DNA of 64,000 bases from Octopus vulgaris (Eukaryota), in assembly GCA_951406725.2 (NCBI GenBank), contig OX597826.1:28396001-28460000 (forward strand), in the 5' to 3' direction. Shown here piece by piece: positions 8,508 to 59,480 of the stretch. The notes beneath the pieces are model-generated. The model saw only the letters and a list, made by a program, of their open reading frames with translations. It searched no databases and was not told the DNA's origin. Each line of letters opens with the position of its first letter. The stretch's first letter is position 1. The position numbers and the translations under genes were made by a program.

Positions 8508-8616
8508 GAGGTGACGAAGTGAGAGAATTGTTAGTACACCGGACAAATGCATCGCAGCATTTTGCCCGATTCCACCTTGCCAATCCATTCAACTAGTAAA
8601 AATAAAGAATCATATA

Positions 8617-8779
8617 GGCGTAGGAGTGGCTGTGTGGTAAGCACCTTGCTTACAAACCACATTGTTCTGGGTTCAGTCCCACTGTGTGGCACCTTGGGCA
8701 AGTATCTTCTGCTATTGCATCGGGCCGACCAAAGCCTTGTGAGTGGATTTGGTTGACGGAAACTGAAAGAAGCCATTCG

Positions 8780-8835
<56 letters not shown>

Positions 8836-9003
8836 TGTGTTTACAATGCTGGTGTGTTTACGTCCCCGTAACTTAGCTGTTCGGCAAAAGAGACCGATAG
8901 AATAAGTACTAGGCTGACAAAGAATAAGTCTTGGGGGCGATGTGCTCGACTAAAGGCGGTGCTCCAGCATGGCCACAGTCAAATGACTGAAACAAGTAAA
9001 AGA
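8617..9003 (+). mobile_element. SINE family A (tRNA-derived head, internal (TA)n(TG)n tract)
   Basis: Head ggcgtaggagtggctgtgtggtaag, B box gggttcagtccc, core ccttgggcaagt, tail gactgaaacaagtaaaaga. Confidence 0.85.
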
Positions 9004-9350
9004 GTAATCCTGCGACGGACCGGCGTCCTGTCCAGAGAGGAACCTATACGCTAGAGAAACCGGATCAAAAGGATAAGATAAGAACCAATTGAGCGCTGAG
9101 GTAGATGCAATCGAGTAGATCCGTTTATAGTTCAAATTCCTCCGAGGTCGACTTTACCTTTAATTCCTTCGGCGTCGATAAAATACGTACCAGTTGTGTA
9201 CTGGGGTCGATGTAATCTCGTTAGTTTTTGACCACACGGAGAATCGCCAAAAAATTTTGCAGCCACGTTGGTATGGGTGAGGAAAGTTGTAAAACACAGT
9301 CCTCATTATTTACATTTGACAGATATTTGTCCTAATCTTATTTGTTGTTA

Positions 9351-9394
9351 ACACAACGTTTCGGCTGATATACCCTCCAGCCTTCTTCAGGTGT
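9351..9394 (-). ncRNA. Minimal type I hammerhead ribozyme motif
   Basis: acac-CUGAAGA-a-ggcug(gaggguauau)cagcc-GAAA-cg-UU-gugu; stem I acac/gugu, palindromic AACGUU stem III region. Confidence 0.65.
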
Positions 9395-9579
9395 CTTGCG
9401 GAAATTTCAAACCTGGGTTCTTATTCTTAAGATATTTTTCGATGTTGTTATTATTACTATCATTATTCAGGTCACTTGGAATCGAACTCGGAATCTTGGA
9501 GTTAGTAGTCCGCGCTCTTGACCACTATGCCATATATGCCCGTGAGCAATTATGGAGTGAATTTTAGGGCTTATAGATC

Positions 9580-9628
<49 letters not shown>

Positions 9629-9790
9629 TACAACAACAACAACAATAATAATAACATCGAAAAAATACCTTAGGAATGAGAACCCATGTTCGAAATTTCC
9701 CCAAGACACCTGATGAAGGCTGGAGGGTATATCAGCCGAAGCGTTGTGTAAAACAACAAACAAGATAAGGACAAATATCTGTCAAACACA

Positions 9791-10180
9791 GGTGCAGGAG
9801 TGGCTGTTGGATAAGTATCTTGCTTACCAACCACATGGTTCTGGGTTCAGTCCCACTGCGTTGTACCTTGGGCCCGTGTCTTCTACTATAGCCGACCAAA
9901 GCCTTGTGAGTGGATTTGTAGACGGAAACTGAAAGAAGCCAGTCATGTATATGTGTGTGTGTGAATGTGTGTGTGTGTGTTTGTCTCCCCAACATCGCTT
10001 GACAACCGATGCTGGTGTGTTTACGTCCCTGTCACTTAGCGGTTCGACAAAAGAGACCGATAGGATAAGTACTAGGCTTCCAAAGAATAAGGCCTGGGGT
10101 CGATTTGATTTGACTAAAGGCGGTGCTCCACCATGGCCGCAGTCAAGTGACTGAAACAAGTAAAAGAATAAAAGAATAAA
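9791..10180 (+). mobile_element. SINE family A, full length, nested in the inverted-arm element
   Basis: Complete head-core-tail; the host arm resumes at 10181. Confidence 0.85.
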
Positions 10181-10544
10181 TATAAATAATGTACATATTT
10201 CCTCATCTCTTAAATATAGAACTGTGACACAGTTCTCATTTCTTCAAGGATCAGTGCTACGCGCAACTTTAAAATTCAGATCTCTTCTTGGCACACGAAT
10301 TTATTTTCTATCACGTATTTTACAAACCATTTTCCTTTTTAATAATAATTTTCTTATTGGTTTTGCTTTTGCCCAAGCAGAATTAGTCCCTGGTGGTATT
10401 TACTACCCACACAAACCACTACTAATAACAATAAACTCTACTATCCGTTATTGCTCAGGAATTACCAACATCTTCAGATTCTAGTAGTGTTACCCACTTG
10501 GCTAGTCCACATTATGGAGTAAAAAGCATAGAGACGGGTTCCCG

Positions 10545-10834: not shown

Positions 10835-11032
10835 ACTTTTACATGTTTCAGTCATATGACTGTGGCCATGCTGGAGCACCACCTTTTAGTCGAGCAAATC
10901 GACCCCAGGACTTATTCTTTGTCAGCTTAGTATTTATTCTATCGGTTTCTTTTGCCGAACCGCTAAGTTACAGGGACGTAAACACACCAGCATCGGCTGT
11001 CATGTTTGGGGGGGACAAACACAGACGCACAA

Positions 11033-11107
<75 letters not shown>

Positions 11108-11265
11108 CAACGGGCTTCTTTCAGTTTCCGTCTACCAAATCCACTCACAAGGCTTTGGTCGGCCCGAGGCTATAGTGGAAGACACTTGCCCAAGATTCCA
11201 CGCAGTGGGACTGAACCCGGAACCATGTGGTTGGTAAGCAAGCTACTTACCACACAGCCACTCCT
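10835..11265 (-). mobile_element. SINE family A, full length
   Basis: Reverse complement of the family A consensus. Confidence 0.85.
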
Positions 11266-34190: not shown

Positions 34191-34191
34191 A

Positions 34192-34584
34192 GGCGCAGGA
34201 GTGGCTGTGTGGTAAGTAGCTTGCTAACCAACCACATGGTTCTGGGTTCAGTCCCACTGCGTGGCATCTTGGGCAAGTGTCTTCTGCTATAGCCCCGGGC
34301 CGACCAATGCCTTGTGAGTGGATTTGGTAGACGGAAACTGAAAGAAGCCTGTCGTATATATGTATGTGTATGTGTGTTTGTGTGTCTGTGTTTGTCCCCC
34401 TAGCATCGCTTGACAACCGATGCTGGTGTGTTTATGTCCCCGTCACTTAGCGGTTCGGCAAAAGACACCGATAGAATAAGTACTAGGCTTACAAAGAATA
34501 AGTCCCGGGGTCGATTTGCTCGATTAAAGGTGGTGCTCCAGCATGGCCGCAGTCAAATGACTGAAACAAGTAAAAGTAAAGTAA
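34192..34584 (+). mobile_element. SINE family A, full length, close to consensus
   Basis: ggcgcaggagtggctgtgtggtaag ... gactgaaacaagtaaaagtaaagta. Confidence 0.9.
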
Positions 34585-38981: not shown

Positions 38982-39259
38982 TTATTTGCCAAGTATCTCA
39001 TCTAACAAGTTAAAGTCCGCCGTATTTGAACTCTGAATGCTATCGAAAATGTCCGCGTTACTCGTGTTGGCGCTATCCAAAAAGTTCATAAAGTCCTCCT
39101 GCGTGGTTGTGGCCGGGTAGCCGTTTTGGTGGGTATTAACGGGACCCGACACTGCAAAACCCGCTCCAGAGCCGAGACTGTAAGGAGACGAAGACGCTGG
39201 CGTACAGTGCATCAGGGTAGGTCTCACACCCATTCGTTGTGACATCTGTATGCTTTGTT

Positions 39260-39290
<31 letters not shown>

Positions 39291-41927
39291 TTGTTGCTGC
39301 TGCTGCTGTTGTTGGACTTGCAGCAGCTGTGAATTCTGGTGTAACATTGCCGCCTGCCCGGGCAAACCATCCAGTTGTGACTGGTGCATGTGAGACACAT
39401 GCTGTCCAGGCGGCATACCACCAGGATTTGTATAACCACCATACTGCTGCATCATACCAGGGCCTGCTGTTGCTAGGTGCATGCGTGACATTGCAATGGA
39501 ACCGTTGTTTGCACCAGCCATCCGTGCACCAGGCTGACCTTGCATCATTGGCCGAGGCCAGTCTCCGGAACTTCGTGGGCGTGATATGTTCAGCCCGTCA
39601 GGTCCGACGTTCACGTTAGGCGGTCGCTGGTTCCGCATGATCGAGCTTTTATATGTGGGTGTCAACGGTCGTTGCGATCGACTGGTGACAGAACCACCCA
39701 CTGGAGTCTGTGTAGGGGCTTGTGTTGTGTACGGTGAGTGTCTTGTCAATGAGGGGCTAGGGTAGTTAGATACAGGGGCTTGGGAGGTGTTAGCCGATGG
39801 CATAACAGAGGTGGTCATCTGCTGTACAGCGGTAACTTGTGCTGAATGTAAGAGGCCAGCTTGGCTAGAATTAGCTTCCGTCTTACCTGGCACACTATAC
39901 CCAGGTTGTATCGTGCTGCTTGTTTGGTTAATCATGTTTTGCATTGTCTGTAAAGGGTTCGTGCCATTTGTACCAAACGACGTGGTGCCATTCGTGCTAG
40001 TTTGTTGCAGCTTGTAGTCAGGGGGTGGCGGTCGACTCATGTACTGTTGCATTTGGGTAGGGCAGGGTGGACCACCGGCGTTCTGCTGCTGCTGCTGTTG
40101 CTGTTGCTGCTGCTGCTGTTGCTGCTCTAGCATAGATTCGCGAGATTTCGTTTGGCACACGTGTTCAGCATGCACTTTGTCGTGCATGATGCTCATCTGT
40201 TCAGTCATGTATTGGCTTTGGGCCATCGCACCTGGGTTGAGAGACAGCGATTGCTGCTGACTCATTGATATCTGTTGAGGGGCCTGTTGCATCTGCAGCT
40301 GTTGGGTCTGTGACATTTGCATCCGGTGTGCACCATGCGATACTTGCATCTGTTGTGTTTGTGTTATTTGCATGGGCTGTGGACCTTGATTTTGGTTGAA
40401 GTGCGCTCGCACTTGATCCTGCAACTGTTGCAGTGACGATGGCGAAGGGCCACCCTGAGCCGAAGTTACCTGCACCCCCATTGGATCGGGATAGTGAGAC
40501 AACGGTTTGGTAGCCCCAAAAGGTAACGACATATCAGTCTTGCCTGGCATCGGCTGTGGATAGCCCGGAGGTACTGGCTGACCTCGCAGCTGGTTTAAAT
40601 GAGGAGGCGGCTGTTGACCATAAGCATAGGAGTTTTGGCCTGGCATGCCCGGCGGTGCCTGACCGAAACCCGCATATCCGTTGCCTCGGCCAAACTGGTC
40701 TATGTCGGAACCTGGGTCACCAAACGGCCCGAGGGATGGGGACTTCATCGCGTACGTCTGGTTCTGGTGCTGAGCAGCCATCTGCTTCAGAGTCTCGGCA
40801 GCGGGACCGGTGTCCGAGAGGACGTGGGGTTGGTGGGATCCACGAAACGTTTGGATCGGTGTTGGGGTACGTACACCACCCATGTTCTGGTTGGTGTCGT
40901 ACAGAGAATTGAGAGGGTTGCTACCAGGTGGCGGAGTATCTACAAACGGTGGACCTTTCGGCGGAAGACTAGGAGAACTTGTAGTTAAAGGACCAAACAT
41001 ATTTAGTGTATCATCTCGGTTCTCCTTGTCAAGATAGACTTCTTCAAAATCGTCCAATCCTTTGAAATCTTCCTTGTCAAGGTTCTCCAAAATGCTTTGC
41101 AAAACCTCAGGATCTAGGTTCAAATTGCTGATGATGTTGTCGGACAAACTGTTGTTGTTGTTGTTGTTGTTGTGATTGTTATTGTTGATGGTATTGTTGT
41201 TGTGATTATGATTGTTGTTGTTGTTGTTGTTGTGACCGGTATTCTGTTGTTGCTGTGCTCCTAGACACTGGCTCTCGTCGCAAGGTTCTTGCTTGCATTC
41301 AACGCTTGTCTGGATGCTGCTTGACTGCGGGGAGCCATCGTTTGTGGACCCATATTGGGTTTTCACACTGGTCACTGTAACGTTGGTGTGGATGGTCTGA
41401 GGGTGTTCAGTAGGGTTGTTGATCTGCTGGACAATTTTCACTGACAAGCTTGACAAAGGATTGTTATCGACGCTGGTCGCAGAACTGTTGCTGTTCTGCT
41501 GCTGCTGCTGTTGTTGCTGTTGTTGCGACTGTGGCGTCGTTTGAGGTGGAGGTGCTTGCGGCTGCTGTTGCTGCTGAGGTTGCTGCTGTTGCTGGTGGTG
41601 GTGGTGATGGTGATGCTGAGCGTGTTGGTGCTGTTGATGGTGATGCTGTTGTTGCTGCTGCTGTGACTGCTGCTGCTGTTGGTTGTGTTGAAGGTTTGGA
41701 TGATGGGAAGAAGAGGAAGAGGAGGATGATACTGCAACTGCTGCAGCTGCTGCTGCTGCAGCTGCCGCGGCCGCTGCTGCTGCTGACGGGTCGTCGTAGG
41801 TATAACCACTGGCTGCTGCCGCTGCTGCTGCTGCTGCACTTGTGCTGCTGCTCACATCACCTGCGTTAGGTAGGGAAGAGGCTGCCTCACTAACTGCTCG
41901 GTTCTCCTTTTTCGATTTTAGTTTTGA
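38982..41927 (-). CDS. mam: Terminal coding exon (981 aa + stop) of a Mastermind/MAML-like Notch transcriptional co-activator; 5' exon(s) with the basic CSL/NICD-binding domain not found in window
   Basis: The 957-aa ORF extends in frame to an acceptor ttatatttttcag|TCA (CAG at plus 41928-41930), phase 0, starting SKLKSKKENRAV. It contains VECKQEP, an acidic NLNLDPEVLQSILENLDKEDFKGLDDFEE block like the first MAML acidic domain, PAAETLKQMAAQHQ like insect Mastermind, poly-Q/H/A/N runs, and a C-terminal acidic tail FMNFLDS...FNLLDEILGK* like the MAML LDEILG end. Recognised by motif memory only. Confidence 0.85.
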
Positions 41928-42028
41928 CTGAAAAATATAAAAAGTAAAAATACAAAATTAGAGATTCCATCACAAATATTATAATAATAAAAATAATAAC
42001 AACAACAACAATAGTAATAATAATAATG

Positions 42029-42302
42029 CAGTTCAATATTTAAGAGATGAGGAATTACGTACATTACTTACATTTCACACATATTTGTCCTCATCTTGTT
42101 TGTTGTTAACACAACGTTTCAGCTGATATACCCTACAGCCTTCATCAGGTGTCTTGGTGAAATTTCAAACCTGGGTTCTGATTCCTAAGGCATTTTTTGA
42201 TGTTGTTGTTATTATTATTCAGGTCACTGCCTGGAATTGAACTCGGAATGTTGGGTTTAGTATCCCATGCTCTTAACCACTATGCCATATGCCCATGGGC
42301 AT

Positions 42303-42338
<36 letters not shown>

Positions 42339-42480
42339 TCGAAAAATACCCGAGGAATGAGAACTCTGGTTCGAATTTTCACCAAGACACCTGATGAAGG
42401 CTGGCGGGTATATCAGCCAAAACGTTGTTTTAACAACAGACATGATGAGGACAAATATCCGTCAAATGTAAATAATGTAT
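42029..42480. mobile_element. Inverted-arm element with central tRNA-like head and a hammerhead motif in each arm (copy 2)
   Basis: 42060-42205 is the reverse complement of 42334-42480. The core 42219-42305 has minus-strand A box TGGCATAGTGG and B box GAGTTCAATTCC. Flanked by (TAA)n. Confidence 0.85.
42109..42152 (-). ncRNA. Minimal type I hammerhead ribozyme motif
   Basis: acac-CUGAUGA-a-ggcug(uaggguauau)cagcu-GAAA-cg-UU-gugu. Confidence 0.65.
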
Positions 42481-42489
42481 AATAATAAT

Positions 42490-42807
42490 GGTTAAAAATT
42501 TTTCCACAATGGCAACAATTTAGAGGGAGGAGACTTGTCGATTACATTGACACCAATGTTTCACTGGTACTTAATTCATCGAACCCCAAAATGATGAAAG
42601 GCAAAGTTGACCTGGGCAGAATTTGAACATTAAGATAATAATAATAATAATCCTTTCTACTATAGGCACAAGGCCCGAAATTTGTGGCAGGGTGTTAGTC
42701 AATAACATAAACTCTGGAGGAATTTGAACTGCAGAATGTAAAGATGGACAAAGTACCACTAAGCATTTCCTCCAGCTGGTTAACGATTCTGCCAGCTCAA
42801 TGCCTTA
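42490..42807 (-). mobile_element. SINE family B fragments
   Basis: gatgaaaggcaaagttgacctgggcagaatttgaac ... acgattctgccagctca. Confidence 0.7.
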
Positions 42808-44654: not shown

Positions 44655-45052
44655 TCTTTTACTCGTTTCAGTCATTTTGACTGTGGCCATGCTGGAGCAC
44701 CGCCTTTAGTCGAACAAATCAACCCCAGGACTTATTCTTTGTAAGCCTAGTACTTAGTCTATCAGTCTCTTTTTGCCAAACCACTAAGTTATGGGTATGT
44801 AAACATACCAGCATTGGTTGTCAAGCAATATTGGGGGAACAAACATAGATACAAACATACACACACACATACTTATATATACATATATACGATGGGCTTC
44901 TTCCAGTTTCCGTCTACCAAATCCACTTACAAGGCTTTGGTCGGCCCGAGGCTATAGTAGGAGACACTTGCCCAAGGTGCCACACAGTGGGACTGAACCC
45001 GGAACCATGTGGTTGGTAAGCAAGCTCCTTACCACACAGCCACTCCTGCGCC
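44655..45052 (-). mobile_element. SINE family A, full length
   Basis: Reverse complement of the consensus. Confidence 0.85.
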
Positions 45053-45660
45053 TAGATAGAGATAGATAGATAGATAAAAAGATAGATATATAGATAGAAA
45101 AATAGATGGATGGATAAATAGATAGATAAATATATAGCTAGATATAGATAGATAGGTAAAACTGTTAAAGAGATTGATAGATGGGCAGATGAATATCAGG
45201 GTGATGGATAGGTAGATAACCATATACATACATAACCATATATATATGTATGTATATACTGAGATAAATACATGGATATATAAAGATATACAGATGAGTA
45301 GGCAAATTATATTGGCAGACAAAAGCAGGTACATGAATATATAGAAAACTAAATGGATAGCTACTGATTTACAAGAATGAGTGAGGAAAACACCTCATCA
45401 AAAACAGATTTTTTTAAAACAATTAATGAACAAATTAATCCAATGAAATTATGTATGCTGTTACTGTTGCTGTATCCAACATGCAGATTATCAAACGAAT
45501 AACCATTTATCATATATTCAAACAAAAGAAGAAGATTAGACTACTTCTGATAATTTCCTGATACAGGTAGATTGGGGTTTCTGGAATTTTTGGTGCCAAA
45601 GCCTTCCTGGGTTACTGATTTTTCTGAATCAGGGTGGCCCCCTTGGTCAATAGACTTTAA

Positions 45661-47770: not shown

Positions 47771-48374
47771 CTAATATAGGTATTTATATATTAGTCCAAA
47801 CTGTACAAGATTATTAATACTGTACGTGCAAGATACCAGTTAACTAATCTGGTGGCTGCTGGAATTTGAAATTCTTGCTTAAGAATTACTACAGATTATA
47901 AGAGGTTCTGGACTGTTAGTGCCAGGAAAGTTGGTGCTGTAGCCATATATTTAATCAGATCAGACAAGAATTCATTCTGGTATATATATTTTTTGGCACC
48001 AAGAGGATTTGAACTCAGAACGTGTATGGATATAACTAAATATCACAAAGAATTGTTTGACCAACTATGTATCAATTAATCTAAGTTCTAATTATTCTGC
48101 TGCTATATTGATCATTATGGATTCAAAGTTACACTATGGCAGATTTAGAATATATGTATCAACAAATATTGAAAAAATGTGTGTGGACATATACATTTAA
48201 TATAATACACACATAATGCATATATAGCTATAATTACAAATATGTAAACACACACACGCTTACATATATACGTTACATATACACACACATATAAGACTTC
48301 CTGCCATACATACAGAGTAAAATGAGAGATGAGAAGAGGCGTAAACGAGAAAAAAAAAAAAGACTTCGGATAAT

Positions 48375-48725
48375 GACATTGACGGCAGAAGACAATGACG
48401 TCGACAACAAATGACGATGACGTCGACAGCAGATGACGATGATGACAACGGCAAAAGACGATGACGACATCAGCACTAGACGATGTCGACAACGGCAGCA
48501 GACGATGCCAAACTAGGAAACGACGACAATGGATGACGAACTAAGCGAGCTAAAACAAGATGACGACCGATGACAGCAGACGATAACGACAACGAATGAT
48601 AGATATTTATAAATGAAAATTATATGGAAGGTGAGAGCTGACAAATGAAGTAGACTATAAACAAAACGACAACCACGGATAATGACGGACAATCACGGAC
48701 GGTGACGACGACATCGCAGACAACA
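48375..48725. repeat. Degenerate (GAC/GAT)n tract
   Basis: Seen directly. Confidence 0.7.
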
Positions 48726-55004: not shown

Positions 55005-55405
55005 CATCATCATCATCGTTATCATCTAACACCCATTTTCTATACTGTCATGGGTTGGACGGTTTGACAGAAGGTGACAAGGCCTGGAGCCGCACCACGG
55101 TCCATCGTCTGTTTTTGTAAGCTTTCTACAGCTAGATGCCCTTTCTAATGCCAACCATTTTACAGATTGTACTGGGTGTGGCACTAACACTAGCACCAAT
55201 GCCGTTTACATGGCACCAGCATCAGTGCTTTTTGCGTGGCACCAGCGGCAGTGCCTTTTACGTGACACCAACACCGCTGCTTTTTATGTGGCACCAGCAC
55301 CATGCTTTTTACGTGGCACAAGTCGCAGTGCCTTTTATGTACCACAAGCATTAATACTTAATACGTGGAACCAGCACCGGTACTTTGCAGGTGGCACCAG
55401 CACCG
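55005..55405 (-). mobile_element. Repeat family H with internal ~24-27-bp tandem units
   Basis: Repeated tgc(c/t)ttttacgtggcaccagca units at 55195-55405. Confidence 0.7.
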
Positions 55406-59434: not shown

Positions 59435-59480
59435 TACTTCTCTGATGAGGACGTAATAAAGCCGAAACATGTCAGAAGTA
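59435..59480 (+). ncRNA. Canonical minimal type I hammerhead ribozyme motif
   Basis: uacuucu-CUGAUGA-gg(acguaauaaag)cc-GAAA-caug-UC-agaagua; perfect 7-bp stem I, palindromic ACAUGU stem III, GUC triplet. Confidence 0.8.

Follow-up and report, generated by a model that had tools for sequence, protein, structure and literature searches.

SINE-like double-hammerhead repeats of the octopus genome as short head-to-head insertions of a Penelope-like element with a likely tRNA-type promoter

Two mirror-image insertions in the window

The window, a stretch of 64,000 nucleotides from Octopus vulgaris (contig OX597826.1, positions 28,396,001 to 28,460,000), holds two copies of a repeat in which a tRNA-like core lies between two arms of opposite orientation (Table 1). 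The repeat is no chance likeness: an arm search gave 1890 candidates, 40 of which were scored, and the four arms of the two copies proved mutually 85-90% alike. The sequence-only reading had given both copies one layout of arm, linker, core, linker and inverted arm. This layout is real, but the copies are mirror images rather than identical, with the complete, tail-bearing arm on the left in copy 2 and on the right in copy 1. The A and B boxes reported on the minus strand of copy 2 are indeed present in the sequence, as are a hammerhead motif, by inspection, in every arm of both copies and the two broken GAAA sites (GAAG at 9738-9741 and AAAA at 42419-42422). The description of the copies as tRNA-headed does not hold for copy 1: another 40 nt precede its core there, taken from the 3' UTR and stop codon (9571-9573) of the parent element described below. 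In the primary arm of copy 2, the place of the start codon (42180-42182) reads ATC, and the intact hammerhead motif is predicted to cut after GUU. The target-site duplication of this copy is weak evidence on its own, since it sits inside a TAA run.

Table 1. Features of the two insertions, in positions of the window
Feature	Position	Strand	Remarks
Copy 1 left target-site duplication	9294..9304	+	11 bp, 1 mismatch to 10227-10237
Copy 1 inverted tail-less arm	9305..9446	-	hammerhead core intact
Copy 1 tRNA-like core with 40 nt of parental 3' UTR/stop codon	9469..9580	-	+1 at 9541
Copy 1 primary tail-bearing arm	9655..10224	+	pieces 9655-9787 and 10176-10224, split by later insertion
Unrelated 388-bp interspersed repeat within copy 1	9788..10175	+	foreign to the element; no other window copy adjoins an arm
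Copy 2 left target-site duplication	42018..42028	+	11 bp; same letters at 42480-42490
Copy 2 primary arm	42029..42204	-	ORF-start part of pseudo-LTR, complete with tail
Copy 2 tail	about 42029-42060	-	within primary arm
Copy 2 minimal type I hammerhead motif	42108..42153	-	core intact; inside reading frame
Copy 2 (AAT/AAC)n linker	42205..42220	-	belongs to the element's 5' leader
Copy 2 tRNA-like core	42221..42294	-	+1 at 42294; A box 42287-42277; B box 42244-42233
Copy 2 head-to-head junction	42285..42307	.	near-palindrome around tRNA start
Copy 2 (TAA)n linker of inverted segment	42308..42337	+	
Copy 2 inverted tail-less arm	42338..42479	+	ATG 42357-42359
Copy 2 inverted-arm hammerhead	42386-42431	+	AAAA replaces GAAA
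Copy 2 right target-site duplication	42480..42490	+	

The interspersed repeat that splits the primary arm of copy 1 must be younger than that insertion. It belongs to a repeat of about 390 bp that is abundant in the window (9788-10175, 34191-34576, 44655-45053, 8616-9007 and 10836-11265) and is probably a SINE, with a tRNA-like start and an internal (TG)n. The minus strand at 38982-41957 carries a 991-codon stop-free frame with runs of Q, A, H and N and no Pfam match, which looks like the long final exon of a mastermind-like transcription co-activator. Copy 2 lies about 100 bp upstream of the likely splice acceptor of this frame, where its inverted arms would form double-stranded RNA and offer a possible editing substrate. 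Tandem arrays of 26-bp and 22/44-bp units occupy 55188-55404 and 48373-48507.

An autonomous parent element

Both window copies are truncated insertions of an autonomous element, placed in the Penelope/Poseidon type by its similarity to an Anolis protein and its domain order, and they do not represent a separate SINE. The parent was traced by walking upstream from one of the first 30 loci (L025), where endonuclease-like coding sequence stands directly upstream of the core. Its unit of about 2.6 kb reads arm (ORF start, hammerhead, tail), reverse transcriptase, GIY-YIG-type end, stop codon, about 30 nt, tRNA-like core, (AAT)n and arm. An autonomous Penelope-like element (PLE) that shares the arm, as sought in the earlier reading, thus exists, with a reverse transcriptase (RT) and a GIY-YIG-type end and with core and arm as integral parts of the unit.

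The RT domain matches PF00078 (E 2e-10; above the Pfam cut-off in L061 and L063), and the single ORF is colinear with P0001, an intact relative of 847 aa, from residue 18 to 846; every parent copy seen carries stops or frameshifts. With a query of the RT only, the core stood directly behind the ORF in all 16 of the 30 loci that reached the ORF end, and of 30 loci found with a query of the N-terminal ORF only, 20 have an arm that passes directly into the coding sequence. The arm translation matches residues 18-63 of P0001, which places the hammerhead inside the reading frame. Relatives number 46, with lengths of 664-1044 aa, and include the Anolis protein of 836 aa, most of whose length can be aligned with the parent at 33-43% identity. 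For the C-terminus, alignment with the matching part of the Anolis protein gives 28% (E 3e-17), the octopus copies give no Pfam GIY-YIG match, and the relative P0043 matches PF01541; the end is called GIY-YIG-type by alignment to these relatives. All 30 of the 30 loci examined for a second Poseidon family in the octopus genome turned out to belong to the parent's family, as did the top loci of a further search, and a metagenome scan yielded no confirmed relative.

The arm itself is, as had been proposed, a Penelope pseudo-LTR (pLTR) with a minimal type I hammerhead motif, recognised by inspection. It forms a partial tandem that overlaps the ORF start, as is characteristic of PLEs, and its insertions show the 5' truncation, inverted 5' copy and one-sided tail of this class.

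Insertion pattern across the genome

The family is abundant: a 24-nt tail word has 4478 exact matches in the octopus genome and a 20-nt A-box word 3068, each against none for its reversed control. At 6-7% divergence, the 4478 exact 24-mers correspond to a rough estimate of tens of thousands of copies. The insertion set comprised the first 100 of the 4478 tail matches, taken from contig C1 in the order of the genome. An inverted arm lies within 1.2 kb in 66 of these 100 insertions, direct arm repeats occur in few, and in most insertions nothing but the end repeat is left, as a head-to-head pair within a single target duplication of 7-14 bp. The tail measures 25-33 nt and is found at one end only, and 58 of the 66 inverted arms, which lack it, end at arm positions 133-143 of 168. 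Duplications of at least 7 bp flank 36 of these 58 units, compared with 53 of 3306 mismatched pairs. Break points and junctions vary from insertion to insertion.

The inverted pLTR that the sequence-only reading had named as a trait of PLEs is frequent here, and the accessible text of a published paper describes inverted 5' copies and tails of 30-40 bp as standard PLE features (PMC8557442). Pairs of hammerheads on opposite strands, 100-700 bp apart, have likewise been reported as truncated PLEs, according to the available part of another report (PMC4209133). As such, the double-hammerhead, inverted-arm layout was already known.

Inverted arms within a flanking duplication might also suggest a MITE-like DNA transposon with long terminal inverted repeats. 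The flanking duplications vary in length (7-14 bp), however, and the termini are unequal, with a tail on one side only, so that neither equal terminal inverted repeats nor a duplication of fixed length is found; interiors differ in every copy, 34 of the 100 insertions lack an inverted arm, and the arm encodes the beginning of an RT protein. This origin is hardly credible. Non-LTR retrozymes were also rejected, as the units are mostly inverted pairs or singles and not head-to-tail, non-coding hammerhead monomers.

Little sign of a separate lineage behind the short copies

A closer rival is a separate, non-autonomous lineage of tRNA-headed SINEs, transcribed by Pol III from short masters and mobilised in trans by the Penelope protein. 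Short tRNA-started copies far exceed those linked to the ORF (53 versus 17), each short copy includes A and B boxes, arm and tail, and non-autonomous derivatives of PLEs are known, as far as the available texts go (PMC8557442; 10.64898/2026.07.22.740005). The core, however, is native to the autonomous element. Among 30 loci anchored on the A box, 25 have an arm downstream and 16 have both arms, so that there is no evident sign of cores existing independently of the element.

Subfamily structure points the same way. Three linked variants (linkage p down to 1e-10) define two subfamilies, and both occur in the 37 ORF-linked and the 83 short units, a modest sample drawn from differently biased searches. 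Of 28 frequent variants, not one is confined to short units. Subfamily frequencies are slightly skewed between the classes, as this rival would allow: the minor subfamily is somewhat commoner among ORF-linked units (14 of 37 versus 15 of 83, p 0.036; the best of 28 tests gave p 0.007, uncorrected). The junctions vary between insertions, which indicates that new insertions do not arise by copying a ready-made double-armed unit. In addition, the template of the Anolis element PAc needs 172 nt of ORF, with copying starting at 111-118, in the accessible part of its description (PMC11167929); by analogy, copies that end in the tail would be unusable as templates.

The copies thus have the A/B-box head of a tRNA-derived SINE, whereas the head is present in the autonomous partner and private lineage changes are absent. 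A separate lineage is quite improbable, and the proposal of a distinct non-autonomous family with a tRNA head and a borrowed PLE tail falls, given that the core is integral to the parent, haplotypes are shared, break points vary and the proposed asymmetry of hammerhead decay is absent. Since the core is tied to the element, the subfamilies are shared and the junctions vary, the repeat is not filed as a SINE family.

Hammerhead motifs

The earlier reading had also suggested, from the two window copies, that the hammerhead downstream of the core is preserved while its partner decays. In 132 arms from the 100 insertions, this asymmetry disappears: an intact 11-nt core occurs in 42 of the 84 arms that follow a tRNA-like core and in 27 of the 48 others (p 0.59), and GAAA is kept in 69 of 84 versus 38 of 48 (p 0.82). 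Nor is the hammerhead core better kept than its neighbours (0.076 versus 0.074 non-majority, p 0.47), although equal variation is expected for dead copies. The free hammerhead position N7 is one of the three subfamily markers, but this is a weak sign, because it is also a codon change. An Rfam search of 41900-42600 gave no hammerhead or tRNA match up to E 10, and folding gave no significant z-scores, with helices I and II as the best fold in one of four arms.

The plus strand of the window carries five further hammerhead-like motifs unrelated to the arm (59442, 49762, 46915, 50525 and 36189), with helix I clearly recognisable at 59442 and 49762. They are probably scraps of other Penelope-like families; a genome search with the 59442 site found three weak matches only.

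The tRNA-like stretch and the 5' wall

The core resembles tRNA-Arg(TCG) best in three of five copies and equally well in one, among 11 sampled tRNAs that form an incomplete set. ARAGORN found no tRNA within the 64-kb window. The 5' ends of insertions pile up at this stretch. Among 70 segments that reach +10 of the core, 53 stop within -7..+10 and 17 continue, and in an A-box-anchored set, which shares a few loci with the first, 34 of 38 segments stop at the tRNA start; further upstream, the end rate is about 0.002 per nt. Apparent ends at -14..-20 are fold-backs at the palindrome. The true wall lies at about -5 to -7, which is 12-14 nt ahead of the A box, the distance expected for a Pol III start. 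The p-values for these ends are overstated, because a primary segment and the inverted segment of its own insertion do not count as independent observations. Four ORF-leading pseudo-LTRs, among 23 rows, reach the core, with starts at +1, +4 and +37 and one that runs through. The 17 segments that pass the tRNA start indicate that read-through RNA is also copied.

These ends could also arise in an ordinary PLE that is transcribed by Pol II and carries the remnant of a SINE head in its 3' UTR, if the palindrome or RNA structure stalled the RT or favoured head-to-head joining. Several observations suit this explanation: a near-perfect palindrome at -7..+5 is used by many junctions and could itself attract them; the ends coincide with it, spread over about 17 nt, and 17 of 70 segments pass through; and the core of the window copy lacks a tRNA-like fold (z 0.09). 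Known PLE promoters lie in the pLTR, according to the accessible text (PMC8557442), so that an RNA start here is expected with either polymerase. The position of the wall ahead of the A box argues against it, as do several ends that join flanking DNA or the arm directly, without the palindrome (e.g. L220, L251 and L205). Structure would furthermore be expected to stop the RT at its 3' side, and TTTT is depleted across the whole unit relative to other PLEs. An element of this kind is an unlikely but serious alternative. The short units are best explained as head-to-head insertions of an autonomous PLE whose end repeat includes a tRNA-like stretch that probably serves as its own Pol III promoter. 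The suggestion that the core is driven by Pol III is thereby retained as a probable promoter, but detached from any separate family.

RNA reads do not bear on this choice. Three raw RNA runs, sampled at about 6 in 100 of each, cover an example locus (L257) at equal depth in both directions; 75-80% of the reads run on into unlike sequence, and depth drops toward the 5' end of the ORF, as copy number does. No read start was seen at the tRNA of this locus in the three sampled runs, and the data are uninformative on Pol III. Elsewhere in the genome, one locus (L161, G000:C12:25267077-25270148) holds seven tRNA-Cys-like genes within 3 kb, two of them with altered anticodons.

Missing terminators

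In 2620 sense-strand columns built from 166 segments, no TTTT is common to at least 20% of copies, while majority A-runs number 30. Codon resampling of the parent predicts 3.4 TTTT, with a probability of 0.034 for none; GGGG is likewise absent from the sense strand, with a codon expectation of only 0.64. Three other octopus PLE ORFs contain 18 TTTT in 6588 nt (p 0.002 per length, 0.03 by T-run extension). Other PLE ORFs of the genome carry 1.8-3.5 TTTT per kb, 0.7-1.4 times their own codon null, compared with 0.39 in the decayed copies of the parent family. No A or B box lies within 900 nt of the three control ORFs, which are 25-31% identical to the parent and apparently Neptune-type, distant and not Poseidon families.

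Only L382, L383 and L389 were counted, because L379-L388 are two families and one ORF was taken per family; L390, a simple-repeat frame, was dropped, and L389 matches the parent in base composition. The two families of L379-L388 (e.g. G000:C13:13587200-13593400) are young, C-rich and Penelope-like, 97-99% alike within and about 70% between them. With stop-free frames of 615-891 codons, an RT match and a weak GIY-YIG match, they were likely active recently.

Known systems and significance

The closest known system is PAc of Anolis carolinensis. According to the available passages of its description, it shares with the octopus element a single ORF with RT followed by a GIY-YIG-type end, a hammerhead that overlaps the beginning of the ORF, a tail produced by two internal end points, and AT-rich targets (PMC11167929). 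These passages make no mention of a promoter like that of the octopus pLTR, with its tRNA-like A/B-box stretch and its (AAT)n leader, and the octopus element differs further in its 5' ends piled at that stretch and in the absence of sense-strand TTTT. The truncated-PLE hammerhead pairs share two minimal motifs, 100-700 bp apart on opposite strands, with a short helix I, a palindromic helix III and a long helix II whose 5' base is unpaired (PMC4209133); unlike in the octopus element, no tRNA-like part is reported in the accessible text on these or on other PLEs (PMC4209133, PMC8557442).

A tRNA-type Pol III promoter beside a type I hammerhead, in a short repeat, does recur in Sm-alpha and Sj-alpha of Schistosoma, which the available text presents as non-coding tandem monomers cut by the ribozyme (PMC6765202, PMC4918200), whereas the octopus units are inverted parts of a coding PLE. 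The accessible part of a study of TRIMp3 elements (Cassandra, Helenus and Ajax) describes a Pol III promoter derived from a small RNA within a terminal repeat, proposes that it arose by SINE insertion and argues that the autonomous partners need Pol II (PMC10886601). These are non-autonomous LTR elements of 0.3-1.3 kb, in contrast to the autonomous, non-LTR octopus PLE. Retrozymes have been described as PLE derivatives in the portion available of a further report (10.64898/2026.07.22.740005), and an octopus repeat annotation lists Penelope and SINE families without such detail in its accessible text (PMC13282606).

The unusual part is thus the tRNA-like stretch in the pseudo-LTR, with 5' ends piled there and no conserved TTTT. 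No autonomous PLE with a tRNA-derived promoter was found in the open literature searched, and it is quite possible that the short form already carries a name, for instance as an octopus SINE or a Repbase/Dfam entry. Ohshima and Okada reportedly described tRNA-derived octopus SINEs in 1994 (OK, OR1 and OR2, of tRNA-Arg origin). These possibly have the same kind of head, given the best match to Arg(TCG).

The textbook split assigns coding retrotransposons to Pol II and only short, non-coding passengers to Pol III. A coding PLE transcribed from a tRNA promoter would break this split and raise the question of how uncapped RNA is translated; one element would be its own LINE and its own SINE, and its example could explain the origin of Sm-alpha and other Pol III hammerhead repeats from PLEs. 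The two fixed 3' ends, variable target duplications and sharp 5' wall furthermore form an in vivo record for the internal-initiation mechanism. They also carry a warning, as such PLE scraps would be annotated as SINEs or MITEs.

A proposed route to the short units

The observed anatomy, two 3' end points, target duplications, 5' wall and depletion of terminators are best explained by a model in which a Pol III promoter, once captured by the pseudo-LTR, drives transcription of the element. Pol III would start about 5-7 nt ahead of the tRNA +1 and, meeting no TTTT, could read into and perhaps through the ORF. The protein would bind the RNA of the ORF start, and the RT-endonuclease would cut both DNA strands with a stagger. 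Subsequently, reverse transcription may begin at two internal RNA sites 25-33 nt apart; a two-site internal start of this kind is described in vitro, for PAc only, in the accessible text (PMC11167929). Both cDNAs, copied from the first pLTR of the RNA, would reach its end at the tRNA start within about 290 nt and would be joined head to head via microhomology or the palindrome, yielding SINE-like double-hammerhead units. Longer copies would result where the second pLTR of a full or read-through RNA is used. The hammerheads of inserted copies would then decay neutrally.

In its boldest form, the model has the element capture a tRNA promoter and purge all Pol III terminators, so that Pol III transcribes the entire 2.9-kb message, which is translated nonetheless. 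This version is tentative, possible rather than probable: the lack of TTTT across the ORF is the only hint that Pol III also makes the translated message. Counted against the Pol III reading are the need for uncapped RNA to be translated and the internal promoter of the Penelope studied so far, which resembles TATA-less LINE promoters in the available part of that work (PMC2377424).

The insertions show one further regularity. A third preferred break appears in 10 of 100 primary arms, which begin at arm 123-124 (L126-L155 and L186-L255), and close to the second end point there are often repeats of a short AAATAATGT-type unit. Both the third break and the AAATAATGT-type repeats may mark slippage on the template as reverse transcription begins.
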